Origin: Candidatus Omnitrophota bacterium
GTDB taxonomy: Bacteria; Omnitrophota; Gorgyraeia; Gygaellales; Profunditerraquicolaceae
Length of the DNA stretch: 64,000 nt
Assembly: GCA_026387335.1 (NCBI GenBank)
Contig: JAPLLX010000004.1
Location: 255,045 to 319,044, forward strand
Direction: 5' to 3'
A program made the position numbers and the translations under genes. Below, one piece after another: positions 5,554 to 64,000 of the stretch (the first letter of the stretch is position 1; each line of letters opens with the position of its first letter). Below the pieces are notes generated by a model. That model saw only the letters and a list, made by a program, of their open reading frames with translations. It had not been told where the DNA came from and did no database searches.

Positions 5554-5570
5554 TGTATCTCCTTTTAAAT

Positions 5571-5634
5571 AAATAGGGACAGCGACCATTTTTCTCTTCT
5601 AGGCGACCAAGAAAAATGGTCGCTGTCCCTATTT
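5571..5634. repeat. family A palindromic element, copy 1. Perfect 25-bp inverted repeat AAATAGGGACAGCGACCATTTTTCT ... AGAAAAATGGTCGCTGTCCCTATTT with 14-nt centre, centre in flipped orientation
   Basis: Seen directly; near-identical copies at 26448, 56866, 59328 and 61776. Fills the rpmI-rplT intergenic space. Confidence 0.9.
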
Positions 5635-5635
5635 A

Positions 5636-5836
5636 TTAACCATACGGTAACATCCGCTTAAGGTATTTTGTTTCTTTTTTGTTATCTAAAATATCTCTTT
5701 TTCTCAACTTCCTGATCCTCTTCATCTTCTTGCTGGAAGCAAGATGGCTCTTGCCGCCGCGAGAATATTTGATCTTACCTCTTTTGGTAAGCTTGAATCT
5801 TTTGGAAACACTTTTTTTGGTTTTTAATTTTCCCAT
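5636..5836 (-). CDS. rpmI: 50S ribosomal protein L35
   Basis: MGKLKTKKSVSKRFKLTKRGKIKYSRGGKSHL is typical L35; 66 aa. Confidence 0.9.
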   Translation of the reverse strand: MGKLKTKKSVSKRFKLTKRGKIKYSRGGKSHLASSKKMKRIRKLRKRDILDNKKETKYLKRMLPYG

Positions 5837-25796: not shown

Positions 25797-26449
25797 TGCT
25801 TTATATAGTCGCTACCCCTATAGGTAATCTAAAGGACATAACCTTTCGCGCTATCGAAGTATTCAAGAGCGTGGATTTGATTGCCTGTGAAGATACCCGG
25901 CATACCAAGATCCTTCTGGATCACTATGGTATTACTAAGCCCACCACGAGTTTCTTTCAGCATAATAGATTTACCAAGGCCGAATATCTGCTCGGGCTTT
26001 TAAAAGAAGGCAAAAACGTGGCCCTTGTTTCGGATGCCGGCACGCCCGGGATACTGGATCCCGGGTATAATCTGATTAATCTGGCTATCAAGAACGCTAT
26101 AGAGCTGACTTTTATTCCGGGGCCCGCAGCTTTTGTCAACGCTTTGGTGCTTTCGGGAAAACCCGCCCACGAATTCTATTTTGCCGGTTTCCTGCCGAAT
26201 AAAAAAATATCCCGCAAGAATAAGCTGAAAGCGTTAAGCGGCTTAAAATGCACGGTTATTTGCTACGAATCGAGCCATCGCATCTTAGCCAGCCTGGAAG
26301 ATTTAGCGGATGTTTTTGGCGATAGGCAAATCGTGGTTGCCCGGGAATTAACCAAGAAATTTGAAGAAGTTATCCGTTCTACCCCCCAGTTGATCCAGGA
26401 GAAGCTGCGTAATTCTAAGCCCCGCGGGGAATTTGTAATTGTAATTTAA
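25796..26449 (+). CDS. rsmI: 16S rRNA (cytidine1402-2'-O)-methyltransferase RsmI (short, ends inside a palindromic element)
   Basis: LYIVATPIGNLKDIT...ACEDTRHT, tetrapyrrole-methylase fold; 217 aa, ends at ...PRGEFVIVI with the stop codon inside the element. Confidence 0.85.
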   Translation: MLYIVATPIGNLKDITFRAIEVFKSVDLIACEDTRHTKILLDHYGITKPTTSFFQHNRFTKAEYLLGLLKEGKNVALVSDAGTPGILDPGYNLINLAIKNAIELTFIPGPAAFVNALVLSGKPAHEFYFAGFLPNKKISRKNKLKALSGLKCTVICYESSHRILASLEDLADVFGDRQIVVARELTKKFEEVIRSTPQLIQEKLRNSKPRGEFVIVI

Positions 26450-26511
26450 ATAGGGACAGCGACCATTTTTCTTGGTCGCCTAGAAGAGAAAAATGGTCGC
26501 TGTCCCTATTT
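26448..26511. repeat. family A palindromic element, copy 2
   Basis: 25-bp perfect inverted repeat identical to the other copies; overlaps the rsmI stop codon. Confidence 0.9.
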
Positions 26512-26519
26512 ATTTAGCC

Positions 26520-37708: not shown

Positions 37709-38633
37709 ACTCTTCCTGCGCGATAAGAATAAATTTAGTTCTTATTTAAACCTGGAAAGACACGCGTTAGCGGTCTATGCCTTCGCCAATATTTATATCT
37801 GGAGAAGATTCTTTGATATACGCTGGGCGGAAATTGCCGGCAGTCTGTGCGTATTTTTTCAGGATAAGATAGGCTCTTTTTTATATATCCCGCCCTTAGG
37901 AAAAACCCGGGATCCGCAGGTAGTGCAGGAAAATTTCAAAATCCTGGAACGTTTGAATAAGAATCCGGAGTTTGCGCATATAGAAAATATTGAGGAGAAA
38001 GATAAAGGGTTTTACGAAGGCTTAGGGTTAGAATGCGCGTTTAAATCATATGATTATCTTTGCCGCAGAACGGAACTGGCGCAGTTACGCGGGAATAAAT
38101 TTAAATCTAAACGCTCCAGCTGCAATTTTTTTACCAAGCGCTACGATTTCAGTTACGCCAAGCTTACTTTAAAAGAGAGGGGTAGCTGTTTTAAATTATA
38201 TAACCTCTGGGCTCAACAGCGTAACTTGGGTAACCCGGATCATATTTATCAGGGTATGTTATCCGATAGCCGGGTTTCCTTAAAAGAAGCGTTGGTTAAT
38301 TACGCGGATTTAGGCTTTCAGGGTGCGGTAGTAAAAATAGATAAAGAGGTAAAGGGCTTTACTTTCGGGTTTCCTTTAAGCCCGGATACCTTTTGTATAT
38401 TATACGAGATAACCGATTTATCCGTAAAAGGCCTGGCCCAATTTATCTTCCGCTCCTTCGCCCAGGAACTTAAGAGTTACAAATATATTAATATAATGGA
38501 TGACTCTGGGCTAGAAAATTTAAAGAAAGTAAAATTATCGTATCACCCGGAGAAATTGGTTCCGGCGTATATTGCTAGAAGAAAACCAACTTCAGGGACG
38601 GTTCTCAACTCAAAGCAAAAGTGTCCCCATTAA
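37695..38633 (+). CDS. DUF2156 (MprF C-terminal-like, aminoacyl-tRNA-dependent transferase fold) stand-alone protein. The last 13 codons and the stop are supplied by a family B palindromic element.
   Basis: C-terminal NLKKVKLSYHPEKLVPAYIA resembles the MprF/LPG-synthase C-terminal motif GLxxFKxKFxPxWxPxY; 312 aa; overlaps the upstream gene by 14 nt. Confidence 0.6.
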   Translation: MRLNKLFLRDKNKFSSYLNLERHALAVYAFANIYIWRRFFDIRWAEIAGSLCVFFQDKIGSFLYIPPLGKTRDPQVVQENFKILERLNKNPEFAHIENIEEKDKGFYEGLGLECAFKSYDYLCRRTELAQLRGNKFKSKRSSCNFFTKRYDFSYAKLTLKERGSCFKLYNLWAQQRNLGNPDHIYQGMLSDSRVSLKEALVNYADLGFQGAVVKIDKEVKGFTFGFPLSPDTFCILYEITDLSVKGLAQFIFRSFAQELKSYKYINIMDDSGLENLKKVKLSYHPEKLVPAYIARRKPTSGTVLNSKQKCPH

Positions 38634-38668
38634 GGGGACACTTTAAGATTGGCTCGAGAACCGTCCCT
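38594..38668. repeat. family B palindromic element, copy 1. Nested inverted repeats: outer AGGGACGGTTCTC...GAGAACCGTCCCT, inner AAAGTGTCCCC-loop-GGGGACACTTT.
   Basis: Seen directly; the copy at 59969-60043 is its near-exact reverse complement. Confidence 0.9.
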
Positions 38669-54308: not shown

Positions 54309-55010
54309 GTGAAGATTAGTGTAATCGGACTGCCCGGCTTAAACCCCGGAAAACATAATATTAAGGATTCTCGTCTTGATCAAGTGGATAGCATAACTAA
54401 AGCCAAGAAGAGGACCTACATTCAAGTTGAAGTCGTTTCCGAAAACGGGGCAATAGACGCGGACGCGATTTTAGTCGTCAAAAATTCATCCTCGGACGTA
54501 ATCTTAAAAGACCTGGAATTTGTGGAGACGCGGCTGGCGCGGGCCACCGAGGAAGCGGAAAAGAATTTATTTAACAAACTAAAGGGCATACTGGAAAAAG
54601 AGGAATTTATCTCCCGCGCGGCTTTAAACCCCGACGAGAAAAAAGAATTGGTTAAATACGGTTTACTTAGCGCTAAACCGGTTATTGTCGCTAGCGAGCA
54701 AGACCTGGAAGACCAAAACAGTTTATTACTCAGGGCCTTAAAAGAGGGAGGCTTTCTGAGCTTTTTTACAACCGGCGAAAAAGAGACCCGGGCCTGGCTT
54801 ATAAGATGTGGAGATACTGCCTGGGTCGCTTCGGGCGCGATACATTCGGATATACAGCAGGGTTTTATCCGGGCCGAAATTATCGCTTTCCAGGATTTTA
54901 TGGAATGCGGTGGTGAATCCAAGGCTAAGCAGGCGGGTAAAATGCGCCTTGAGCCCAAAGAATACATCATGCAGGACTGTGATCTGGCAAACTTTCGGTT
55001 TAATAAATAG
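54309..55010 (+). CDS. YchF/Obg-like ATPase paralogue with degenerate P-loop and truncated G domain but intact C-terminal TGS domain
   Basis: N-terminal ISVIGLPGLNPGKHN versus canonical GIVGLPNVGKST; DSRLDQVDSI aligns with YchF DPRLDQLAEI; C-terminal TGEKETRAWLIRCGDTAWVASGAIHSDIQQGFIRAEI...GKMRLEPKEYIMQDCDLANFRFN matches the YchF TGS domain; 233 aa versus about 360 for YchF. Confidence 0.65.
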   Translation: MKISVIGLPGLNPGKHNIKDSRLDQVDSITKAKKRTYIQVEVVSENGAIDADAILVVKNSSSDVILKDLEFVETRLARATEEAEKNLFNKLKGILEKEEFISRAALNPDEKKELVKYGLLSAKPVIVASEQDLEDQNSLLLRALKEGGFLSFFTTGEKETRAWLIRCGDTAWVASGAIHSDIQQGFIRAEIIAFQDFMECGGESKAKQAGKMRLEPKEYIMQDCDLANFRFNK

Positions 55011-55022
55011 GGAGAGATTATA

Positions 55023-56537
55023 ATGGTGAAGATTAAACGGGCGTTGATCAGCGTATCGGATAAAACAGGAATATTAGATTTCGCGAAAGAGTTAAATAAA
55101 TTCGGCGTGGAAATCCTCTCTACGGGTGGCACGGCAAAATTATTGCGCGAAAATAATATTCCGGTAAAAGAAGTATCCGAATATACGGGATTTCCGGAGA
55201 TGCTTGACGGCCGGGTTAAAACGCTGCATCCCAAAATACACGGCGGGCTTCTGGCTTTGCGGGATAACCCCGAGCATATGGCTACGCTCAAAGATCATGG
55301 TATCGGTTTAATCGATATGGTAGCGGTAAATCTTTATCCGTTTGAAAAAACCACCCAAAAACCCGGGGTAGCGATAGAAGAGGTGATTGAAAATATTGAT
55401 ATCGGCGGGCCGTCCATGCTGCGCTCCGCCGCTAAAAATCACCGCTCAGTAGCGGTTATCTGTAATCCGGGAAGGTACCCCCAGGTCATCGAAGAATTAA
55501 AGAAAAATAACGGCTGCCTGCCGGATAGCCTTTTACGCGATTTAGGCATTGAAGTTTTTAGCCGCACATCCCAATACGATGGAGCGATATTTGCGTATCT
55601 TAACAAATGGAATAACGGCTCTAAAACAGCAGCAATAGGCATTTTCCCCGATACGCTTACTTTATCTTTTGAAAAAATTCAGGATTTACGTTACGGCGAG
55701 AATCCCCATCAAAAAGCAGCCTTCTACAAAGAAAAAGGGAAGTCGGTAGGGTTGATAAACCTTAAGCAATTACAGGGTAAAGAGTTATCTTTTAATAATA
55801 TATTGGATTTAAATGCCGCTTTGGAATTAGTGCGGGAATTCAGCCAACCAGCTGCGGTAATCGTCAAACATAATAATCCCTGCGGAGTGGCTGAAGATAA
55901 AACTCTGGAAAAAGCATTTTTATACGCCTGGAAGTGTGACCCGCTCTCCGCTTTCGGCGGAATTGTCGCTTTAAACCGTAAGCTGGATTTAAAAACCGCT
56001 AAAGTGATAGCTAAAAGTGGATTCTTAGAATGTATTATCGCTCCCGGGTTTGAACAGGAAACGCTAGAGTTATTTAAAGAAAAAAAGAATTTACGCATTT
56101 TGGAATTTTATGGCTTAGAGCCGATAAACGAGCCGGAGTTTAAACGCGTAAGCGGCGGGTTGTTACTCCAGGATAAAGATTTGGCGACCCTGGATTTAAA
56201 TAACCTGAAAGTGGTTACTAAAAGAAAGCCGACCAAGCAAGAGATGACTAGTTTGATTTTTGGTTGGAAAGTAGCCAAGCATGTAAAATCCAACGCCATT
56301 ATTTTAACCAAGGGGACTAGGGCCGTCGGCATCGGCGCGGGGCAGATGTCCCGGGTGGATTCAGTTATGATTGCTAAGAAAAAATCCGGCAAGTTAAGCG
56401 CCAATTCCTGTTTAGCTTCCGACGCCTTCTTCCCTAAGCCGGACGCTATTTCCTGGGCCCATAAAGCCGGCGCTAAAGCGATAATCCAGCCCGGCGGCTC
56501 AATCGCCGACCAGAATCCAGGCCTGCGACAAATATAA
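55023..56537 (+). CDS. purH: bifunctional AICAR formyltransferase / IMP cyclohydrolase
   Basis: MGS-like N-terminal domain (ALISVSDKTGI) plus AICARFT domain; 504 aa. Confidence 0.92.
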   Translation: MVKIKRALISVSDKTGILDFAKELNKFGVEILSTGGTAKLLRENNIPVKEVSEYTGFPEMLDGRVKTLHPKIHGGLLALRDNPEHMATLKDHGIGLIDMVAVNLYPFEKTTQKPGVAIEEVIENIDIGGPSMLRSAAKNHRSVAVICNPGRYPQVIEELKKNNGCLPDSLLRDLGIEVFSRTSQYDGAIFAYLNKWNNGSKTAAIGIFPDTLTLSFEKIQDLRYGENPHQKAAFYKEKGKSVGLINLKQLQGKELSFNNILDLNAALELVREFSQPAAVIVKHNNPCGVAEDKTLEKAFLYAWKCDPLSAFGGIVALNRKLDLKTAKVIAKSGFLECIIAPGFEQETLELFKEKKNLRILEFYGLEPINEPEFKRVSGGLLLQDKDLATLDLNNLKVVTKRKPTKQEMTSLIFGWKVAKHVKSNAIILTKGTRAVGIGAGQMSRVDSVMIAKKKSGKLSANSCLASDAFFPKPDAISWAHKAGAKAIIQPGGSIADQNPGLRQI

Positions 56538-56584
56538 AATCGCCATGGTTACTACCGGCATAAGGCACTTCAGGCACTAATGAA

Positions 56585-57958
56585 ATGTCCTACCCAGAAG
56601 CTCTCCGATACCTGGAATCTTTTGTCAACTACGAAAAGTTTTCCAGCTACCCTTATCAAGAAGCCTTAAACTTAAAACGCGTTCAGGGTTTTTTAAATTT
56701 AGTCAAGAATCCCGAGCGTTCCTTAAGATTTATCCACGTAGCCGGAACAAAAGGCAAAGGCTCAACCTGCGCTTTTATTACCTATATATTAAGGGAAGCC
56801 GGGTTTAAAACCGGCTTATATACTTCTCCGCACCTAATTGATTTTAGAGAACGCATCAGGATTTTAAATAGGGACAGCGACCATTTTTCTTGGTCGCATA
56901 GACAGAAAAATGGTCGCTGTCCCTATTTAAGTGACTTTGAAGGAATGATCTCTAAGCGCAAACTGGCCAGCTTAGTGGATAGATTAAAACCCGCGCTAGA
57001 AAAATATAACCGCGTTTCAATTTACGGCGCGCTTTCCTTTTTTGAAATATGCACAGTTTTAGCTTTTATGTATTTCAAAGACGAAGGGGTAGACTTAGCG
57101 GTTTTAGAGACCGGATTAGGCGGGAGGCTGGACGCCACTAATATTGTTGAGCCTAAAGTGTGCGTTCTTACCCCCATAAGTTATGAGCATATGGATAAAT
57201 TAGGTCATACCTTAAAGAAGATAGCGGCGGAGAAAGCCGGGATTATTAAAAGAAATTCAATTGTTATTTCCGCGCCGCAAGTGAAAGAAGCAGGAAGAGT
57301 TATCAGTGATAAATGTAAGCAAGAAAATGCCAAACTATTCCTGGTAGGAAAAGATATAAAATATAGCGGCTCGGAGAATAAATTCAGAGTCACTACCCCT
57401 TACGCAGACTACAAAGATTTAAAGATAAGATTATGCGGCCGGCATCAAGTGCTGAACGCCGCAATGGCCCTGGCCGCAGTTAGCGCTCTCGGTAAGTGTA
57501 ATATCAAAGTCCGGATTGATTCTATCAAGAAAGGGCTCTATAATACTTTATGGCCGGGTAGATGCGAGGTCGTGGCTAAAAATCCTCTCATAATCCTGGA
57601 TGGCGCGCAAAACGCCGCTTCGGCAAAGGTTTTAAAAAAAGCGGTTCAAGAAAGGTTTCGTTACCGCAAGCTTATCCTTATACTCGGAGTTTCTAACGAT
57701 AAAGATATAAAAGGGATCGCGGATGAGCTTTATGCTTTAGCCGGTACAGTTATATTAACCAAAGCGAATAATTCGCGCGCAACTGATCCGAGAATCCTCG
57801 CCGGATATTTTAGAAAAAAAGATAAATATATCACTAATGGCCTAGCCGAAGCTAAAATATTGGCCCAGAAGCTGGCTAAAAAGGAAGACCTGATATTAGT
57901 TACCGGCTCTCTTTTTGTGGTAGGCGAATTCAAAAATGATAAATCACGACTTAACTGA
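56585..57958 (+). CDS. folC: folylpolyglutamate synthase / dihydrofolate synthase carrying an in-frame 21-codon palindromic-element insertion
   Basis: Mur-ligase P-loop HVAGTKGKGST, SPHLIDFRERIRI, LETGLGGRLDATNIV; the insertion [21 protein letters not shown] is encoded by a family A element. Confidence 0.85.
   Translation: MSYPEALRYLESFVNYEKFSSYPYQEALNLKRVQGFLNLVKNPERSLRFIHVAGTKGKGSTCAFITYILREAGFKTGLYTSPHLIDFRERIRILNRDSDHFSWSHRQKNGRCPYLSDFEGMISKRKLASLVDRLKPALEKYNRVSIYGALSFFEICTVLAFMYFKDEGVDLAVLETGLGGRLDATNIVEPKVCVLTPISYEHMDKLGHTLKKIAAEKAGIIKRNSIVISAPQVKEAGRVISDKCKQENAKLFLVGKDIKYSGSENKFRVTTPYADYKDLKIRLCGRHQVLNAAMALAAVSALGKCNIKVRIDSIKKGLYNTLWPGRCEVVAKNPLIILDGAQNAASAKVLKKAVQERFRYRKLILILGVSNDKDIKGIADELYALAGTVILTKANNSRATDPRILAGYFRKKDKYITNGLAEAKILAQKLAKKEDLILVTGSLFVVGEFKNDKSRLN
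56866..56928. repeat. family A palindromic element, copy 3, inside the folC coding sequence (63 bp, in frame)
   Basis: Perfect 25-bp inverted repeat identical to the intergenic copies. Confidence 0.9.
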
Positions 57959-59318
57959 TACAATCGCGGCGATTGCCACCCCTGTCGGTGAGGGCGGGAT
58001 AGGGATAGTGCGTATTAGCGGTAAGCTGGCGTTAGCTATCGCGGATAAGATATTTATTTCTCCCGCCGGAAAATTACCATCAACGCTTAAAACTTATACT
58101 ACGCATTATGGGACAATCGTCAAGGGCAAAAAGGTGATTGATGAAGTCATCCTTACGATTATGCGCTCCCCCAAGTCTTACACAAGAGAAGATATAGTTG
58201 AAATAAATTGCCACGGCGGAATAGTCGCTTTGCGGGGAGTGCTGGACCTGGTTTTAGCCAGCGGCGCGCGTATGGCTAGGCCGGGAGAATTTACCAAACG
58301 CGCGTTTCTAAACGGCAGGATTGATCTTACTCAGGCCGAGGCGGTCTTAGATATAATCCGGGCTAAAACCGATTCCGCTTTAAAGACGGGAATTGAGCAG
58401 CTAAAAGGCTCGCTCTCTAAGCAGATAAATAAATACAGGGAACTTTTATTAAACATACTCGCGCAATTAGAGGCAGGTATTGATTTTCCGGAAGAGTTAG
58501 TTTCTACGGAGGATTTAAAAACCATATCCAGAAAACTAGATGAGGTTCATAATGGCTTGGAGGGGTTGATTAAAGATTCCCGCCTGGCCAGGATATTACG
58601 CGAAGGAATACATGTGGTTATCTGCGGAAAACCCAACGTCGGAAAATCATCCCTTTTAAACGCGCTGCTTAAAGAGGAGCGCTCAATAGTCACTCCTATT
58701 GCCGGGACTACCCGCGACACGATAGAAGAGGTAATAGATATTCAAGGAATACCGGTTAGGATAGTGGATACTGCCGGGATATTGGAGCCGCGGGATTTAG
58801 TGGAAAAAGAAGCGGTCAAGCGCTCAAAGGAACAGATTGCCGCTGCGGATTTAATAATTATTTTATTTGACGCTAGCAAGAAGCTCTCCCCGGAAGACCT
58901 CTTTCTTATCCGGAAATTAAAGAAAAAAAAGGTTATCGCTTTAATAAATAAGTCCGACCTTAAGCAGAAAATTGAAAAAGGAAGGTTAGAAAAGATATTT
59001 AAGAGCGTAGTAGATATATCGGCTAAAAAACTGATCAATATAGATCTTTTGGAAAAGGCTATCGCGGATTTAGTTTACGGCGGCTCAGTTGCCCAGGCTG
59101 AATCATTACTGGTGGCTAATTTAAGGCACAGAAATATGATTCAAAAGGCGAAGATTATTATTGCGCAAGCCCGCGAATCGTTAGATAATAGCTTGCCAGC
59201 GGAATTTATTGCTCAGGATTTAAAAGAGGCGTTAGGGCATCTGGATGAAGTATCCGGCAGGAAGTTTTCCGAGGATTTATTGGATAAGATATTCTCGGAA
59301 TTTTGTATCGGTAAATAA
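57936..59318 (+). CDS. mnmE: tRNA modification GTPase MnmE/TrmE
   Basis: N-terminal TIAAIATP, G-domain GKPNVGKSSLLNAL, C-terminal CIGK; 460 aa. Confidence 0.92.
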   Translation: MINHDLTDTIAAIATPVGEGGIGIVRISGKLALAIADKIFISPAGKLPSTLKTYTTHYGTIVKGKKVIDEVILTIMRSPKSYTREDIVEINCHGGIVALRGVLDLVLASGARMARPGEFTKRAFLNGRIDLTQAEAVLDIIRAKTDSALKTGIEQLKGSLSKQINKYRELLLNILAQLEAGIDFPEELVSTEDLKTISRKLDEVHNGLEGLIKDSRLARILREGIHVVICGKPNVGKSSLLNALLKEERSIVTPIAGTTRDTIEEVIDIQGIPVRIVDTAGILEPRDLVEKEAVKRSKEQIAAADLIIILFDASKKLSPEDLFLIRKLKKKKVIALINKSDLKQKIEKGRLEKIFKSVVDISAKKLINIDLLEKAIADLVYGGSVAQAESLLVANLRHRNMIQKAKIIIAQARESLDNSLPAEFIAQDLKEALGHLDEVSGRKFSEDLLDKIFSEFCIGK

Positions 59319-59327
59319 ATAGGATAT

Positions 59328-59390
59328 AAATAGGGACAGCGACCATTTTTCTTGGTCGCCTAGACAGAAAAACGGTCGCTGTCCCTATTT
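59328..59390. repeat. family A palindromic element, copy 4 (mnmE-folE intergenic)
   Basis: Inverted repeat with one arm mismatch (ATGG/ACGG). Confidence 0.9.
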
Positions 59391-59404
59391 AATCAGGGAG
59401 AATT

Positions 59405-59962
59405 ATGAATAAGAAAAAGATTGAGAGAGCAGTGTACGATATATTGGAAGCGATAGGCGAGAACCCGAAGAAAAAGGACCTTCTGGAAACTCCTAAGCGC
59501 GTAGCTGAAATGTACGAAGAAATATTTTCCGGTATCAAGCAGGACCCCGAGAAAGAGTTAGAAGTTATTTTAGACCAGAAACATCATGAAATCATCCTAC
59601 TTAAAGGAATACCTCTCTACTCGATCTGCGAACATCATTTGCTTCCTTTTGTGGGTAAGGCCAGCATAGCTTATATCCCTAAGAGTGGCCGGGTTACGGG
59701 TTTGAGTAAATTAGCCCGGGTGGTAGATATTTTAGCCCACCGGCCGCAAGTACAGGAGCGCCTGACTACCCAGATAGCCGAGATTATTATGTCTAAATTA
59801 AGGCCCTTAGGGGTAATGGTGGTTATTGAGGCTGAACATATGTGCATGTCTTTGCGCGGAGTAAGGAAACCCGGGACGCTTACCATTACCTCAGCCGTGC
59901 GCGGTATATTTAAAGAGAATGAAAAGACGCGCTCAGAGGCCTTAGCTTTGATTAAATCTTAG
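59405..59962 (+). CDS. folE: GTP cyclohydrolase I
   Basis: [10 protein letters not shown] zinc-binding motif; 185 aa. Confidence 0.92.
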
Positions 59963-59968
59963 AATCTT

Positions 59969-60043
59969 AGGGACGGTTCTCAAGCCAATCTCAAAGTGTC
60001 CCCTAACAGGGGACACTTTTGCTTTGAGTTGAGAACCGTCCCT
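59969..60043. repeat. family B palindromic element, copy 2 (reverse orientation relative to copy 1)
   Basis: AGGGACGGTTCTCAAGCCAATCTCAAAGTGTCCCCTAACAGGGGACACTTTTGCTTTGAGTTGAGAACCGTCCCT; preceded by the tandem direct 8-mer AATCTTAGAATCTTAG. Confidence 0.9.
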
Positions 60044-60061
60044 GACTGATGGAGGAATATT

Positions 60062-60400
60062 ATGACGCATAAAAGCCAAGGTAAGTCATCACTAGGGATG
60101 GAAGCCAATATTGCCGCGCTCTTAAGCTACCTTTTGGGTTTTGTCTCCGGGATAATCTTTTACGCTTTAGAGAAAGAAAATAAGTTTGTGCGTTTCCACG
60201 CGATGCAATCGATCGTGGTTTTCGCGTTTTTATTTGTTTTAAACATGGTCGTAAAACTCTTACCTTTAATAGGTTGGACCATCTCCACTCTTTTGGGCAT
60301 AATAGGCATAGTCATCTGGGTTCTCCTTATGGTTAAAGCCTACAACGGAGAATATTTCAAACTGCCGGTTGCCGGAGAGATTGCCGAGAAAAACTCCTAA
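60062..60400 (+). CDS. DUF4870-family small membrane protein
   Basis: ANIAALLSYLLGFVSGIIFYALEKENKFVRFHAMQSIVVF pattern; 112 aa. Confidence 0.55.
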   Translation: MTHKSQGKSSLGMEANIAALLSYLLGFVSGIIFYALEKENKFVRFHAMQSIVVFAFLFVLNMVVKLLPLIGWTISTLLGIIGIVIWVLLMVKAYNGEYFKLPVAGEIAEKNS

Positions 60401-60518
60401 AGAAAGCGCTTTCTAAAACACTGGATATTCCCTTGAAACCCGTAGGAATCAAGGGCATACTAGTAATGCATAGTCAAACAGGCCATTATGCCTGCGCCAG
60501 ACAGGAGAGCGTTAACCG

Positions 60519-60860
60519 ATGCCCGGTAATTATCCTCAAGAAAAAAGGAAGCTAGTCCGTTTTCTCATCACTATACCCTTAAAACACATTAAGATCAGCA
60601 TGAGAAGTTTTAACTCCTCCTGCACTCATGACATAAGCGCGCAAGGCGTAGGCCTGATCACTCCCGAGGAGCTTCCCGTAAATACCCCTTTAATTTTATG
60701 CCTTAAGATTCCGGATAACGGAGAAGAGATATCTTTAGAGGCAGAGGTAGTCTGGTCAACGCGAATGTCTTCTGAGCAATACCGCTCCGGCCTTAAGCTT
60801 AAAAATAATCCGATCAAACCCATCCCCCTCGTATTAAGGACAATTTATTCCAAATTATAA
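60519..60860 (+). CDS. PilZ domain protein (c-di-GMP receptor-like)
   Basis: RKLVRF...DISAQGVGL PilZ signature; 113 aa. Confidence 0.6.
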   Translation: MPGNYPQEKRKLVRFLITIPLKHIKISMRSFNSSCTHDISAQGVGLITPEELPVNTPLILCLKIPDNGEEISLEAEVVWSTRMSSEQYRSGLKLKNNPIKPIPLVLRTIYSKL

Positions 60861-60935
60861 TCTTGATTGACATACCCCGCTGGAAGTAGTATCATATCTT
60901 TAATCGTCTAACTGACCCAATAATAAAAAACTAAG

Positions 60936-61751
60936 ATGACCAAAATTAAAACTCAAGTTTCCATAATCCTCGCGGTTATATTCCTGTCGGGTTGCGCCTG
61001 CTATAGTTTTAAAAAAGGCGAGTCTCCCTACAATAACGGTTTTGTAGCCTCAAGATACGGCAGAGTACTTCCTGAATATACCATCGGTAAAGACAATTCT
61101 GTCCCGGATGAAGCGGTAGCTAAGGAACGCTTCAAAAGGCGTAGGATTGAAGTCGAGGCTTATTATAAAAAAATGGGTTATATTAAAAACCGCTTTAGAC
61201 AGATGTTTATTGACCCGCCTTTTTTTATGATTCAGGCTGTATCCGGTGTGTTCTATATGCCATCAGTAGCTATCAATGATTACAAATATAATCACGATGC
61301 CGCATATAAAGAGAAGATAGACAAACAGGAAGATGCTGAGTATAGGGCTGAAAAAGAGCGGCTCAGGGTTTTAAAGGAGAAACTAAACTCTTACATTCAG
61401 AATGATTTACAGAAAGAAACGCCCGCAGTCGCGCCAACCGCAGAACCGGTTAAAAAAGAATCTTTGCCACCGGAAAAGGCCAAGCCAGTTGTTAGTGAAG
61501 AAGCTCTTGCGCCTAAGGCCGTAGAAGCTCCTGCCAAGGAAGTGGCTGCGAAGATTCCTAACGCGGTTATCGTTGCTAAACCCCTGAAAGGGGTTTCGCC
61601 TTTAACTGTGCAATTTTACGGTTCTAAATCTTCTTCTCCCAACGGCAGGATAATCTCTTATCTTTGGGATTTTGGCGACGGAGATACCTCTACAAAGAAG
61701 AATCCTATGAATACCTACTGGAGCACAACCTACGGCTCGCGTAAACATTGA
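60936..61751 (+). CDS. lipoprotein with Pro/Ala/Lys-rich linker and a C-terminally truncated PKD domain
   Basis: Lipobox LSGCA; PKD-like LTVQFYGSKSSSPNGRIISYLWDFGDGDTSTKKNPMNTY then stops mid-domain, 25 nt before a family A element; 271 aa. Confidence 0.5.
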   Translation: MTKIKTQVSIILAVIFLSGCACYSFKKGESPYNNGFVASRYGRVLPEYTIGKDNSVPDEAVAKERFKRRRIEVEAYYKKMGYIKNRFRQMFIDPPFFMIQAVSGVFYMPSVAINDYKYNHDAAYKEKIDKQEDAEYRAEKERLRVLKEKLNSYIQNDLQKETPAVAPTAEPVKKESLPPEKAKPVVSEEALAPKAVEAPAKEVAAKIPNAVIVAKPLKGVSPLTVQFYGSKSSSPNGRIISYLWDFGDGDTSTKKNPMNTYWSTTYGSRKH

Positions 61752-61775
61752 AGTACTTTCAAAATAAAACTCTTT

Positions 61776-61836
61776 AAATAGGGACAGCGACCGTTTTTTG
61801 TCTATGCGACCAAAAAAACGGTCGCTGTCCCTATTT
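61776..61836. repeat. family A palindromic element, copy 5 (variant arms ...CCGTTTTTT)
   Basis: Seen directly. Confidence 0.85.
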
Positions 61837-62114
61837 AATTCGATTTTTGAGTTTTAGCTGAAATAAAAGATATTGTAAATATTAGGGATACGTCAAAACC
61901 GCCTCTTACTTTCAAAACCCCGAAAATAGCTATTTTTAGCAAAATAAACCCTTCAAATTTATCAAATCCCAAAAATCTCCGCTTCCGACGGAAAAATCAA
62001 AGATTTTACTTGACAAAATGTATAATATGCTTTATCATTTGTTATTATATTATAGTACTTACTATAATACACTATATACTGCTATTTGTTCTGCATTTAA
62101 AAAAAGGAGCACTA

Positions 62115-62345
62115 ATGAACAAAACCTTAATCTCACCTATTGAAATCAGTAAAAAATACAACATCTCCTATCAAACAATAAATTATTACACTAATCTGGG
62201 TTTATTAAAAGTGCGCCGGCGCGAAGGAAATAACCGGTTGTATAACAACAGGGAAGTGCGCTCGGGGTTAAGCAGGATAACGAAATTAAAGAGCCAGGGT
62301 TATTCCTTGCATCTTATCCGCGGGATTGTCATGAAAGAACAATGA
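62115..62345 (+). CDS. MerR-like HTH transcriptional regulator (short)
   Basis: ISPIEISKKYNISYQTINYYTNLGLL resembles the MerR N-terminal HTH. Start placed at the internal ATG (MNKTLIS); the ORF-track start at 62010 adds an implausible hydrophobic leader. Confidence 0.5.
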   Translation: MNKTLISPIEISKKYNISYQTINYYTNLGLLKVRRREGNNRLYNNREVRSGLSRITKLKSQGYSLHLIRGIVMKEQ

Positions 62346-63166
62346 GCTATTACTCGGTATTAGGCCTGAATAAAGAACCTTTTTCCACCAGCCCCGACCC
62401 GGAGTTTTTCTACGAGTCCAACGAGCATAAAGCCTGTCTCCTGCGGGTATTGGTAGAAATACGGCTGCGCCGGGGCTTAAGCGTTATTTTAGGAGATGTA
62501 GGCGTTGGTAAGACCACACTTTCACGTAAGCTTTTTCAGATGCTTAAAGAAAGACCGGATATACTTTTTTATATGGTGTTGGACCCGACTACCCCCAACG
62601 AAGAACTATTTCTGGAGTCATTAGTGCGGACGTTTAATATCCAGGATGAGCTCAAAACTTCACCCAGCATACTGGATTATAAAGAGGCGATCAAAAAATT
62701 TCTTTTTCAAAAAGGCGTAGAGGAAAATAAAACAATAGTTTTTGTTATAGACGAAGCCCAAAAACTTAATCCGGCTGCTTTGGAGATGCTACGCGTTTTA
62801 TTAAATTATGAGACTAATGAATATAAATTATTGCAGCTGGTTTTATTCTCGCAGATGGAGCTTTTGCCCCGGATAAAAGAGATTAAAAACTTTTTTGACC
62901 GGATAGTGCTTAAATATGTTATTAACCCTCTGGATGAAAAAGAGACCAGGGACATGATTAATTTTCGGTTGCAGCAGTCGGGCTTTAACTCAGAGCTGAA
63001 ACTCTTTACCGATGAGGCAATTAGCGAGATCCATCATTATAGCCAGGGTTACCCGCGCAGGATCAACCTGATTTGCCATAACGCGCTAAGGAATCTGATC
63101 ACCTCTAACCGGACAGTGATCGACGCTACCTTAGTGCGGGACCTGATAGCCAGGAGCGCAGTATAA
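62342..63166 (+). CDS. ExeA/GspA/MshM-type AAA+ ATPase of type II secretion / type IV pilus systems
   Basis: Walker A LGDVGVGKTTL, Walker B IVFVIDEAQ; 274 aa. Confidence 0.7.
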   Translation: MSYYSVLGLNKEPFSTSPDPEFFYESNEHKACLLRVLVEIRLRRGLSVILGDVGVGKTTLSRKLFQMLKERPDILFYMVLDPTTPNEELFLESLVRTFNIQDELKTSPSILDYKEAIKKFLFQKGVEENKTIVFVIDEAQKLNPAALEMLRVLLNYETNEYKLLQLVLFSQMELLPRIKEIKNFFDRIVLKYVINPLDEKETRDMINFRLQQSGFNSELKLFTDEAISEIHHYSQGYPRRINLICHNALRNLITSNRTVIDATLVRDLIARSAV

Positions 63167-63168
63167 CA

Positions 63169-63825
63169 ATGGATAAAGGGACCTCCGACGAAAGACTGCT
63201 TAAATTGATTGAAGGTGGCGCCGCGGGCGAAGCTAAACGCAAACAAAATATCGGCATAAGCCCTAAAAAATCATTCTCCGAGCTTATGCAGACGTCTAAA
63301 TTTAATCTAAGTTTGAAGGCGATTAAGGAGTTTAAACCCAATATCGTCGTCCTGAATAAAGGGTTAATGGTGTTGGCGGCAATAGTCACGGTCATACTGA
63401 TCTATAGCCTTTTTAGCGGGCCGGTCTTTTCAGCCTCTAATGCAGCATATTTTACTTCTGCCGATGTCTCTGCCGTAGCCAAACAATTATCCGCGAAAGA
63501 AAATCCGGGTTTGCTCCGCAAAAATATATTAAGCCAGGACATTAAGCGGAATGTTTTCCTGGCTCCGGGAACCAAGCTCACCTCGCTTACAGAAGCCGCC
63601 TCCGCCAATGTAACCGAGGTCGCTAAAGACCTAAAATTAGTGGGGATTATCTGGTCAGCTAACCCGGAGGTAATGATCGAATACGGAAAAGATTCCCGGA
63701 CCTATACCTTAAAGAAAGGGGATTCTTTTAACGGAGATCAATTTAAGGTTAAAGATGTTGCGCGTAACTTTGCGGTCTTAGAAGTTTCTATTGACGGTAG
63801 AGTAAACGAGTATGTGTTAAGATGA
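63169..63825 (+). CDS. bitopic membrane protein, possible GspB/PilP-like partner of the ExeA ATPase
   Basis: Single TM helix LMVLAAIVTVILIYSLF, C-terminal beta-rich domain; 218 aa; sits between the ATPase and the secretin. Confidence 0.4.
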   Translation: MDKGTSDERLLKLIEGGAAGEAKRKQNIGISPKKSFSELMQTSKFNLSLKAIKEFKPNIVVLNKGLMVLAAIVTVILIYSLFSGPVFSASNAAYFTSADVSAVAKQLSAKENPGLLRKNILSQDIKRNVFLAPGTKLTSLTEAASANVTEVAKDLKLVGIIWSANPEVMIEYGKDSRTYTLKKGDSFNGDQFKVKDVARNFAVLEVSIDGRVNEYVLR

Positions 63826-64000
63826 GCCGGCTGCGTTCTTTCTTTATATTTACGGTCATCTGTTTATTGAGTTTTAACTTCCTGTTGGCCCAGGACGCTA
63901 AAGAAGCTAAAATGAACGAACTACTGGAAAAACCTCTGCCAACAGAAGAAAAAAAGATTTCGCTGGATTTAAAAGGCATAGACATCAATGAGCTCTTTAA
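63822..64000 (+). CDS. secretin (PilQ/GspD-like) N-terminus, partial
   Basis: Own translation: MSRLRSFFIFTVICLLSFNFLLAQ (signal peptide) ... KISLDLKGIDINELF (secretin N-terminal motif); runs off the window. Confidence 0.45.
   Translation, partial: MSRLRSFFIFTVICLLSFNFLLAQDAKEAKMNELLEKPLPTEEKKISLDLKGIDINELF

Follow-up and report, generated by a model that had tools for sequence, protein, structure and literature searches.

How does a perfect palindrome come to lie inside the gene of an essential enzyme, and does the gene survive it? The question is raised by a stretch of 64,000 nucleotides from a Candidatus Omnitrophota bacterium (GenBank assembly GCA_026387335.1, contig JAPLLX010000004.1, positions 255,045 to 319,044), here called the window. 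In it, the folylpolyglutamate synthase gene folC contains a short hairpin-forming repeat. The answer we consider probable, if short of certain, is that the hairpin is a dimer of terminal repeats linked to a TIRYT (a tyrosine transposase that goes with terminal inverted repeats). It would have entered a loop of FolC by replacing native DNA, been tolerated there, and stayed on as a probably neutral passenger. An in-frame hairpin in FolC is in itself a real event, of a kind that is already known.

The hairpin is 67 bp long (56864-56930), with perfect arms of 27 nt around a loop of 13 nt. Its arm has the form TAAATAGGGACAGCGACC, with the core AGGGACAGCGACC. An earlier reading made from the letters alone (the sequence-only reading) placed the palindrome at 56866-56928; it is there as described, and the perfect arms reach further out. 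Elements of this kind measure 63-69 bp, and their ends read TAAATAGGG and CCCTATTTA. The window has 10 occurrences of the arm's 25-mer, which make up five hairpins; 100 shuffles gave 0.00, so the palindrome is not a chance product. Folded as RNA in a context of 123 nt, the folC copy reaches -56.3 kcal/mol (z = -10.5).

The folC product is 100% identical to the FolC of an Omnitrophica metagenome-assembled genome (MAG) at NCBI, encoded on a 328-kb contig, and the precomputed Pfam domains of that entry are Mur_ligase_M, Mur_ligase_C and FOL3_C. It matches the Thermotoga maritima FolC structure 1O5Z with E = 4e-59 (phmmer), and has the Mur-ligase fold, P-loop, omega-loop and C-terminal domain. As had been noted before, the 457-aa frame is intact and crosses the hairpin without a stop codon, which adds a peptide of 21 amino acids (+S). 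The element end TAAATAGGG has stop codons in two of the three frames. The sole open frame, AAT-AGG-GAC, is the one used in folC. The peptide NRDSDHF, checked for occurrence without the palindrome, has no match in the 119 other FolC homologues listed. Removal of the insert as an intein or intron, at the RNA or protein level, was considered and dropped: the insert is 21-23 aa, has no splicing motifs, and its sequence is that of the repeat itself.

An allele without the hairpin is available for comparison. The closest FolC (P0002, 90-92% amino acid identity) comes from a 511-kb ENA contig, and the relative's stretch (L001) is syntenic with the window over 21 kb, at 95-98% DNA identity. In folC, 69 bp of the window stand in place of 36 bp of the relative (L001 10279-10314), which code for TPKTKKIISGA. 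The net change is +33 bp, or +11 aa. More distant FolC orthologues share the 11-aa loop pattern (for example YPKTKNQKPNI and HPETKSQKPKI), so the relative's loop is taken to be the ancestral state. The sequence-only reading had proposed an addition of 21 aa. The element's peptide is indeed in folC, but the orthologue alignment and blastn breakpoints point to a swap: the event reads as a recent replacement, not as a plain 21-aa insertion. That reading had also called this region roughly 30 aa longer than in E. coli FolC. The extra length is owed to the element only in part. Between ERIRI and the next matched block there are 27 residues in the window and 3 in 1O5Z; about 11 of the extra residues occur clade-wide, and the rest are element-derived.

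The same comparison dates the family. The relative lacks the 13-nt core at all three window sites it shares (folC, mnmE/folE and 61774-61838). Three of the four comparable window copies are thus missing there, and the fourth, at the end of rsmI, is common to both and identical. The family is therefore older than the split and has been active since. This bears out the earlier picture of an inserted palindromic element, and shows the family to be dispersed and recently mobile: five hairpins in the window, three of them missing from a ~97%-identical relative. The copy between mnmE and folE is a clean addition of 71 bp (59319-59389) directly behind the mnmE stop, between TAA and TAA; in this one clean filled-versus-empty comparison, no target duplication is present. 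The copy at 61774-61838 occupies the place of ~116 bp of the relative's intergenic DNA, and has a compensated A>G/T>C change across its arms. The rsmI stop in the window (26447-26449) is the element's first TAA, and the relative (L201 ~2152-2157) has an extra TAA ahead. All 120 RsmI homologues are 217 aa long, which means that the element left this protein unchanged. The loops of the window copies read TGGTCGC[C/A]TAGA(A)C, in either orientation.

Could the hairpin have been put into folC by the assembler, as a repeat-induced chimera? The allele comes from a single NCBI contig, a junction-specific search of JGI metagenome contigs gave 0 matches, the exact protein is not in the contig index, and the neighbouring gene purH has an odd 5-bp deletion. 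On the other hand, the insert keeps the frame exactly, through the element's sole open frame. For thirteen neighbouring genes, the lengths in the window and the relative agree exactly. Six other real genes also have a family member in frame, and they come from independent assemblies, some of them long-read. Finally, at 67 bp the repeat does not reach the length of usual final assembly k-mers plus reads. An artefact is extremely improbable.

To see how far the family extends, one genome per species was scanned for the pattern AGGGACAGCGACC-N15-45-GGTCGCTGTCCCT, and copy counts below rest on the matches listed. The 13-nt core was found in at least 110 loci, in MAGs labelled with at least 7 phyla. 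The labels are Omnitrophota, Planctomycetia, Nitrospirota, Elusimicrobia, Deltaproteobacteria, Aminicenantales, Aerophobetes and Actinomycetota. The core is identical across bins with different phylum labels. Hairpin loops vary widely among genomes, and complementarity is kept in the AT-rich bases that border the core immediately on its outer and inner sides. Beyond the palindrome, no conserved target motif or duplication was seen in the 123 copies listed.

Most copies are at gene ends. Among those 123, intergenic copies lie between tandem genes in 82 cases, convergent genes in 13 and divergent genes in 4, and the median distance to the upstream stop codon is 6 nt. The element's own TAG terminates the upstream open reading frame (ORF) in 19 of the 82 copies between tandem genes. 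Copies in frame within genes with Pfam domains number 7 of 123 (~6%), and are listed in Table 1. In acetate kinase, the Pfam alignment shows no net length change, so the repeat peptide NRDSDLFSLENRSLSL seems to have taken the place of a native segment about as long as itself.

A transposase for this family was not to be had from its neighbours. When 1,791 ORFs from 110 hairpin loci were clustered all against all, no recurrent adjoining transposase emerged, only common two-component proteins. The gene between two close copies in L059 was tried as a candidate, and is a membrane protein instead. The link came from the rare solo arms: hairpins outnumber these by 126 to 10. In L020, solo arms form perfect 23-bp inverted repeats enclosing 489 bp, and the interior is the C-terminal half, a remnant, of a REP-associated tyrosine transposase (RAYT) gene (NCBIfam E = 1.3e-9; REP stands for repetitive extragenic palindrome). 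The same MAG, ZodW_Metabat.114, has this unit along with dispersed hairpins of the same arm (L013, L016, L020:910, L067, L106).

Relatives of the L020 protein have more than 600 matching stretches in metagenomes, and 80 metagenomic loci encoding them were fetched. Their genes are bracketed by the arms. Right arms (with at most 3 mismatches) lie between -8 and +25 nt of the stop codon in 49 cases, where 0.55 would be expected from the density elsewhere; left arms lie at most 140 nt upstream of the gene in 47 cases, against 2.6 expected. Arms in the wrong orientation are found in 2 and 3 cases only. Counted per locus, the right arm is at the stop in 49 of 77, the left arm is upstream in 39 of 65, and both are present in 32. 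In L118 and L120, whose genes are disrupted or frameshifted, no left arm was found upstream. Both arms of a locus are of the same variant (CGAC, CGCC, ACAC, AGAC or TCAC), and the arms in L126 and L145 are identical to those of the window over TAAATAGGGACAGCGACCATTT, 21-22 nt.

The full-length transposase is ~223 aa long. It starts with MPRIAR...HHITQRGNYRQ, contains NHVHF (the HUH motif), and then MRYSQYFN followed by GHLWQGRFYS. Arm-bracketed proteins score 52-56 bits on Pfam Y1_Tnp (cut-off 23) and 18-20 bits on IS200. A search of PDB sequences with the TIRYT protein gave no match at E <= 1. Going by its sequence, the folC hairpin is two full terminal repeats with a 13-nt spacer, that is, a putative REPIN-like non-autonomous derivative. 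In several transposase units (L122, L125, L143, L145, L192), TTGACA stands directly inside the left repeat with a TAnnnT box ~17 nt further on, which looks like a transposase promoter built into the element end.

A classic miniature inverted-repeat transposable element (MITE) that belongs to a DDE-type insertion sequence, such as an IS630/IS5-like one with TA or TTAA duplication, and is unrelated to Y1 transposases, would also have ~25-nt terminal inverted repeats and no coding capacity. TTAA does flank both sides of the folC and 61776 copies. These flanks (TTAA/ATAA/TTAT) are complementary and not direct, however, and so are part of the palindrome. The one clean filled-versus-empty pair shows no duplication, Y1 transposase genes have correctly oriented arms on their flanks far more often than by chance, and no DDE transposase recurs beside arms in 113 loci. 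This origin is very improbable.

The TIRYT link puts the element close to a described system. TIRtrons and TIRYTs, with the repeat motif GGGGWSAS, come with repeat families of moderate abundance in which dimers are frequent (Di Nocera et al. 2013, PMC3733652), and the TIRYT is TnpA_REP subclass 2.1, with a C-terminal extension (Quentin et al. 2018, PMC6006769). Shared with these are a Y1/HUH transposase nearest to RAYTs with such an extension, long inverted repeats at fixed distances that are not hairpins themselves, and dispersal of the repeats as dimers. At the position of the motif, the repeats here read GGGGACAG or AGGGACAG. The sister variants GGGGACAG match all 8 positions of GGGGWSAS (L121, L127, L129, L157, L161, L162, L169; same protein family). 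The hosts differ: Omnitrophota, Nitrospirota, Elusimicrobia and others here, Acidobacteria and Proteobacteria in the published cases. In addition, the dimer hairpin is the dominant form here, at a density of 5 copies per 64 kb. In-frame intragenic terminal inverted repeats (TIRs) are unreported in PMC3733652; intragenic copies there are GTAG and CGTC REPs, for which a repair-gene bias and TAG stops from REP ends were already reported too.

The REP/REPIN-RAYT system (Nunvar 2010; Bertels & Rainey 2011, PMC3116915) has much in common with the element as well. Both have two inverted units in a hairpin of 50-70 bp, and a cognate Y1 transposase gene bracketed by the hairpin's own units. Both have copies at gene 3' ends, between tandem or convergent pairs, where the element end often gives a TAG stop. 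A REP unit, however, is an imperfect GTAG-tagged palindrome of 20-40 nt, whereas the arms here are not palindromes by themselves and have no GTAG tag. In the window arm AAATAGGGACAGCGACCATTTTTCT, the internal stem is limited to AAAT/ATTT, with no terminal GTAG. The protein here falls just under the cut-off for REP_Tyr_transpos and has an extra C-terminal domain of ~85 aa.

The sequence-only reading had likened the insert to Rickettsia palindromic elements (RPEs; Ogata et al. 2000, per PMC10969869). The likeness holds as far as a palindrome lies in frame in a housekeeping gene, with a tolerated loop peptide. It does not extend to the element itself. RPEs are ~100-150 bp, CGTC-tagged, without known transposase, and from Rickettsia (PMC3733652, PMC10969869), whereas the present element is 63-69 bp, has no CGTC tag, is transposase-linked and occurs in several phyla. 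Nearly half of RPE-1 copies are intragenic, against ~6% here. ERIC, BOX and other MITEs (Delihas 2007; PMC10969869) are likewise small hairpin repeats with occasional in-frame ORF fusions; they originate from or are mobilised by DDE-type insertion sequences, usually with target duplications, of which none are seen here. A review calls in-frame MITE fusions "not unusual", with RPEs as the extreme case (PMC10969869). Literature searches, in full text with the core sequence and on Omnitrophota with palindromic repeats, gave only unrelated primer matches and nothing relevant, respectively.

What does the hairpin do to FolC? In an AlphaFold2 model (mean predicted local distance difference test score, pLDDT, 80; predicted template modelling score 0.78), residues 95-120 have no secondary structure, and pLDDT is below 50 at 99-116. 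The insert loop is placed between the strand 91-94 and the helix 124-144. This agrees with the expectation that the insert lies in a surface loop, which is here predicted to be disordered. The model resembles FolC/FPGS structures with template modelling scores of 0.61-0.75 (Foldseek). The loop length in 100 FolC homologues has a mode of 13 aa as measured (n=48) and a tail to 37 aa. All residues invariant over 26 FolC orthologues are retained in the window. Downstream of the insert, comparison with the relative gives a ratio of non-synonymous to synonymous change (dN/dS) of 0.18, from 32.5 non-synonymous and 47.5 synonymous differences. Such a value, far below neutrality, indicates purifying selection and fits the earlier presumption of a functional allele. 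The FolC of the window is probably still functional, to judge from its residues and substitutions.

It could also be that this folC allele is inactive or decaying, and that the cell relies on a paralogue or on salvaged folates. The native loop is partly deleted and 12 native codons are destroyed. The dN/dS of 0.18 is above that of most neighbours (median ~0.04), a 5-bp deletion frameshifts the conserved C-terminus of neighbouring purH, and inspection for paralogues covered the 64 kb of the window. Yet the 457-codon frame and the residues invariant in orthologues are kept, the FolC fold is kept in the model, dN/dS is well below 1, and adjoining mnmE likewise has 0.18. The loop is the most length-variable part in 100 homologues and tolerates unrelated inserts to ~35 aa, and folE, two genes downstream, is strongly constrained (dN/dS 0.011). 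Inactivity is unlikely.

The same loop has been hit elsewhere. In three orthologues it holds unrelated hairpins (-42.7, -36.1 and -19.3 kcal/mol). In a fourth (L115) it holds a weak, apparently decayed palindrome of -6.7 kcal/mol. For comparison, the loop DNA folds at -43.3 kcal/mol in the window and at 0.0 in the empty allele. The FolC loops of L115 and L116 carry the widespread repeat ...CTCGCAATGAC (LLAMT/LAMT). The positions of the hairpins within the loop differ between lineages, which suggests tolerance rather than precise targeting.

It is conceivable that the loop was hit repeatedly because the hairpin is kept for a role in RNA or DNA: it might terminate or attenuate transcription internally, be a site for RNase III, or make translation pause, and so tune FolC output. 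The stem is very stable (-43 to -56 kcal/mol) and is followed by UAUUUAA, other copies sit at the positions of terminators or mRNA stabilisers, and three unrelated hairpins and one weak palindrome share the FolC loop elsewhere. Against this, a simple terminator scan (55000-64000) flags no copy: the 13-nt loop is too long for an intrinsic terminator (3-8 nt) and the T tract, in the tail ATTTAA, is too weak. Insert positions in the loop vary by lineage, the closest relative fares well without the hairpin, and intragenic copies lie in unrelated proteins, always in linkers or loops. Such a role is quite improbable.

A further reading is rather unlikely as well. Here the FolC loop, and similar loops in MutL, SMC, AckA and AroA, would be a true hot spot for several unrelated hairpin families in Omnitrophota, with regular remodelling of loops and TIRYTs passing between phyla that share groundwater or sediment. 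In a stronger form, the folC hairpin may also act on the mRNA. If the hot-spot reading is true, replacement-type hairpin insertion would be a regular route of remodelling protein surface loops.

For the preferred reading, that of a TIRYT-linked dimer in a tolerant loop, a mechanism can be proposed. A TIRtron is a unit of ~0.75 kb that codes for a RAYT-like Y1/HUH transposase (the TIRYT), and the hairpin would be two of its ~25-nt TIRs placed head to head. By analogy with the TnpA of IS200/IS605 and the E. coli RAYT, the TIRYT would act in trans on the folded single-stranded hairpin, which would be pasted into AT-rich DNA without target duplication. Selection would then keep copies a few bases past stops, and rarely in loops, in the sole open frame. 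The folC copy entered after the split from the ~97%-identical relative, with 36 bp of native loop lost and 69 bp gained. These lengths keep the frame, and take the loop from 11 to 22 aa. This surface loop, which joins the ERIRI strand to the following helix in the ATPase domain, is hypervariable and predicted to be disordered, so the enzyme would tolerate the change. The filled allele would persist as a probably neutral passenger.

Some observations weigh against this account. Two of the three window-specific copies (folC and 61774-61838) substitute resident DNA rather than just adding to it, and we know of no described Y1-transposase reaction that predicts such replacement. The TIRYT gene is absent from the 64-kb window, so the enzyme of this genome is unseen. 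Arm-bracketed proteins reach 70-76 bits on NCBIfam REP_Tyr_transpos, just below the equivalog cut-off of 80. The window arm AGGGACAG matches 7 of the 8 positions of GGGGWSAS. The phylum labels are those of record titles only. The dN/dS of folC is at the top of its neighbours' range (0-0.18). The absence of the folC junction from the JGI metagenome contigs counts here too, as does the purH deletion, which implies some gene decay or assembly error nearby.

What the locus offers is a concrete, dated case in which a hairpin repeat linked to a transposase has rewritten one loop of an essential enzyme. Elsewhere the filled allele is only ~3% different from the empty one, and the two are therefore directly comparable for activity and expression. 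The little studied TIRYT/TIRtron class is extended to Omnitrophota, Nitrospirota and other uncultured groups, where the head-to-head repeat dimer is the abundant form and the 13-nt core a simple search handle. Several hairpin families have made recurrent use of one FolC loop, and the repeat's own stop codons fix the ends of many genes in these genomes. For annotators, NRDSDHF, KIGTATIF, KMVAVPIF and KNGRCPY in MAG proteins are translated repeats.

Table 1 Positions of folC, its hairpin, the other family copies, and hairpins in related loops. Positions without a locus name refer to the window.
Feature	Locus and positions	Strand	Remarks
folC coding sequence	56585..57958	+	457 aa, host gene of hairpin; listed ORF
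DNA differing from empty allele	56863..56931	+	69 bp, replacing 36 bp; blastn breakpoints, alignments
Left hairpin arm	56864..56890	+	TTAAATAGGGACAGCGACCATTTTTCT; one complete terminal inverted repeat
Codons of element-encoded loop peptide	56867..56932	+	FolC residues 95-116; translation
Hairpin loop	56891..56903	+	TGGTCGCATAGAC, 13 nt; first 7 nt are the arm's TGGTCGC again; sets element orientation
Right hairpin arm	56904..56930	+	Perfect reverse complement of left arm
Family copy	5568..5637		Between two minus-strand genes; reverse-complement loop
Family copy	26447..26512		Begins at rsmI stop (TAA of TAAATAGGG); 100% identical in relative
Family copy	59327..59391		Between mnmE and folE; absent in relative
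Family copy	61774..61838		3' of PKD-domain gene; reverse-complement loop
In-frame copy, FolC	window		
In-frame copy, MutL linker	L033		
In-frame copy, SMC hinge	L065		
In-frame copy, PMT_2 (PMT-type) glycosyltransferase	L066		
In-frame copy, giant response-regulator protein	L042		Tail
In-frame copy, acetate kinase (AckA)	L032 4840-4883		Near N-terminus
In-frame copy, EPSP synthase (AroA)	L111 7907-7953		Near N-terminus
FolC-loop palindrome, other Omnitrophota lineage	L114 3283-3387		
FolC-loop palindrome, other Omnitrophota lineage	L116 3328-3393		
FolC-loop palindrome, other Omnitrophota lineage	L117 1294-1362		
FolC-loop palindrome, other Omnitrophota lineage	L115 3283-3330		

Two neighbouring genes deserve mention. 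In the window, purH (55023-56537; site 56505-56540) lacks 5 bp, GAGAT, that are present in the 97%-identical relative. The last ~27 residues are frameshifted as a result, and the conserved end ...KYKIAMVTTGIRHFRH is lost, though it is readable in another frame. This is either a real lesion or an assembly error. The PKD-domain gene (window 61417-61757, L001 14729-15270) is 70 aa shorter than that of the relative; an internal block is variable, and close to the 3' end 57 bp are deleted in frame.

FolC has a second length-variable spot (A2 columns 258-296; window residues ~224-226), with inserts of 7-29 aa in P0079, P0021, P0022, P0010, P0016 and P0013. It may also accept repeats.

A second palindromic family is present in the window (38594-38668 and 59969-60043) and in the relative (L001 13279-13357), with arms of ~35 nt and the sequences AGGGACGGTTCTCAA...AAAGTGTCCCCT / AGGGGACACTTT...; the copy 3' of folE is common to the relative. 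Its inner GGGGACAC fits GGGGWSAS, and a related GGGGACACTTTCC hairpin is found in the FolC loop of L114.

Just outside some left arms, in the window (59319-59329) and in L122, L143 and L145, the left end of the element is repeated in part and in tandem (AAATAGG, ACAAAATAG x4, AAAATAGGG x3). The end AAATAG|GG occurs in such partial copies, which may be footprints of a cleavage or joining site.

A secretin gene (L067 3199-3257) and a Memo/AMMECR1 gene (L064 2582-2636) each have the hairpin overlapping their 5' end. For the secretin, the start region and a portion of the signal peptide (MLRKWSLSLLILV...) may come from the right arm. The Omnitrophota SMC with a hairpin in its hinge (L065, 2422-7740) also has, in the P-loop region, an intein that contains a LAGLIDADG domain.

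At gathering thresholds, Rfam gives only tRNAs and 6S RNA in the window, and nothing at any hairpin copy. The 6S RNA gene is on the minus strand (1979-2111, 64 bits), and the tRNA genes number seven.

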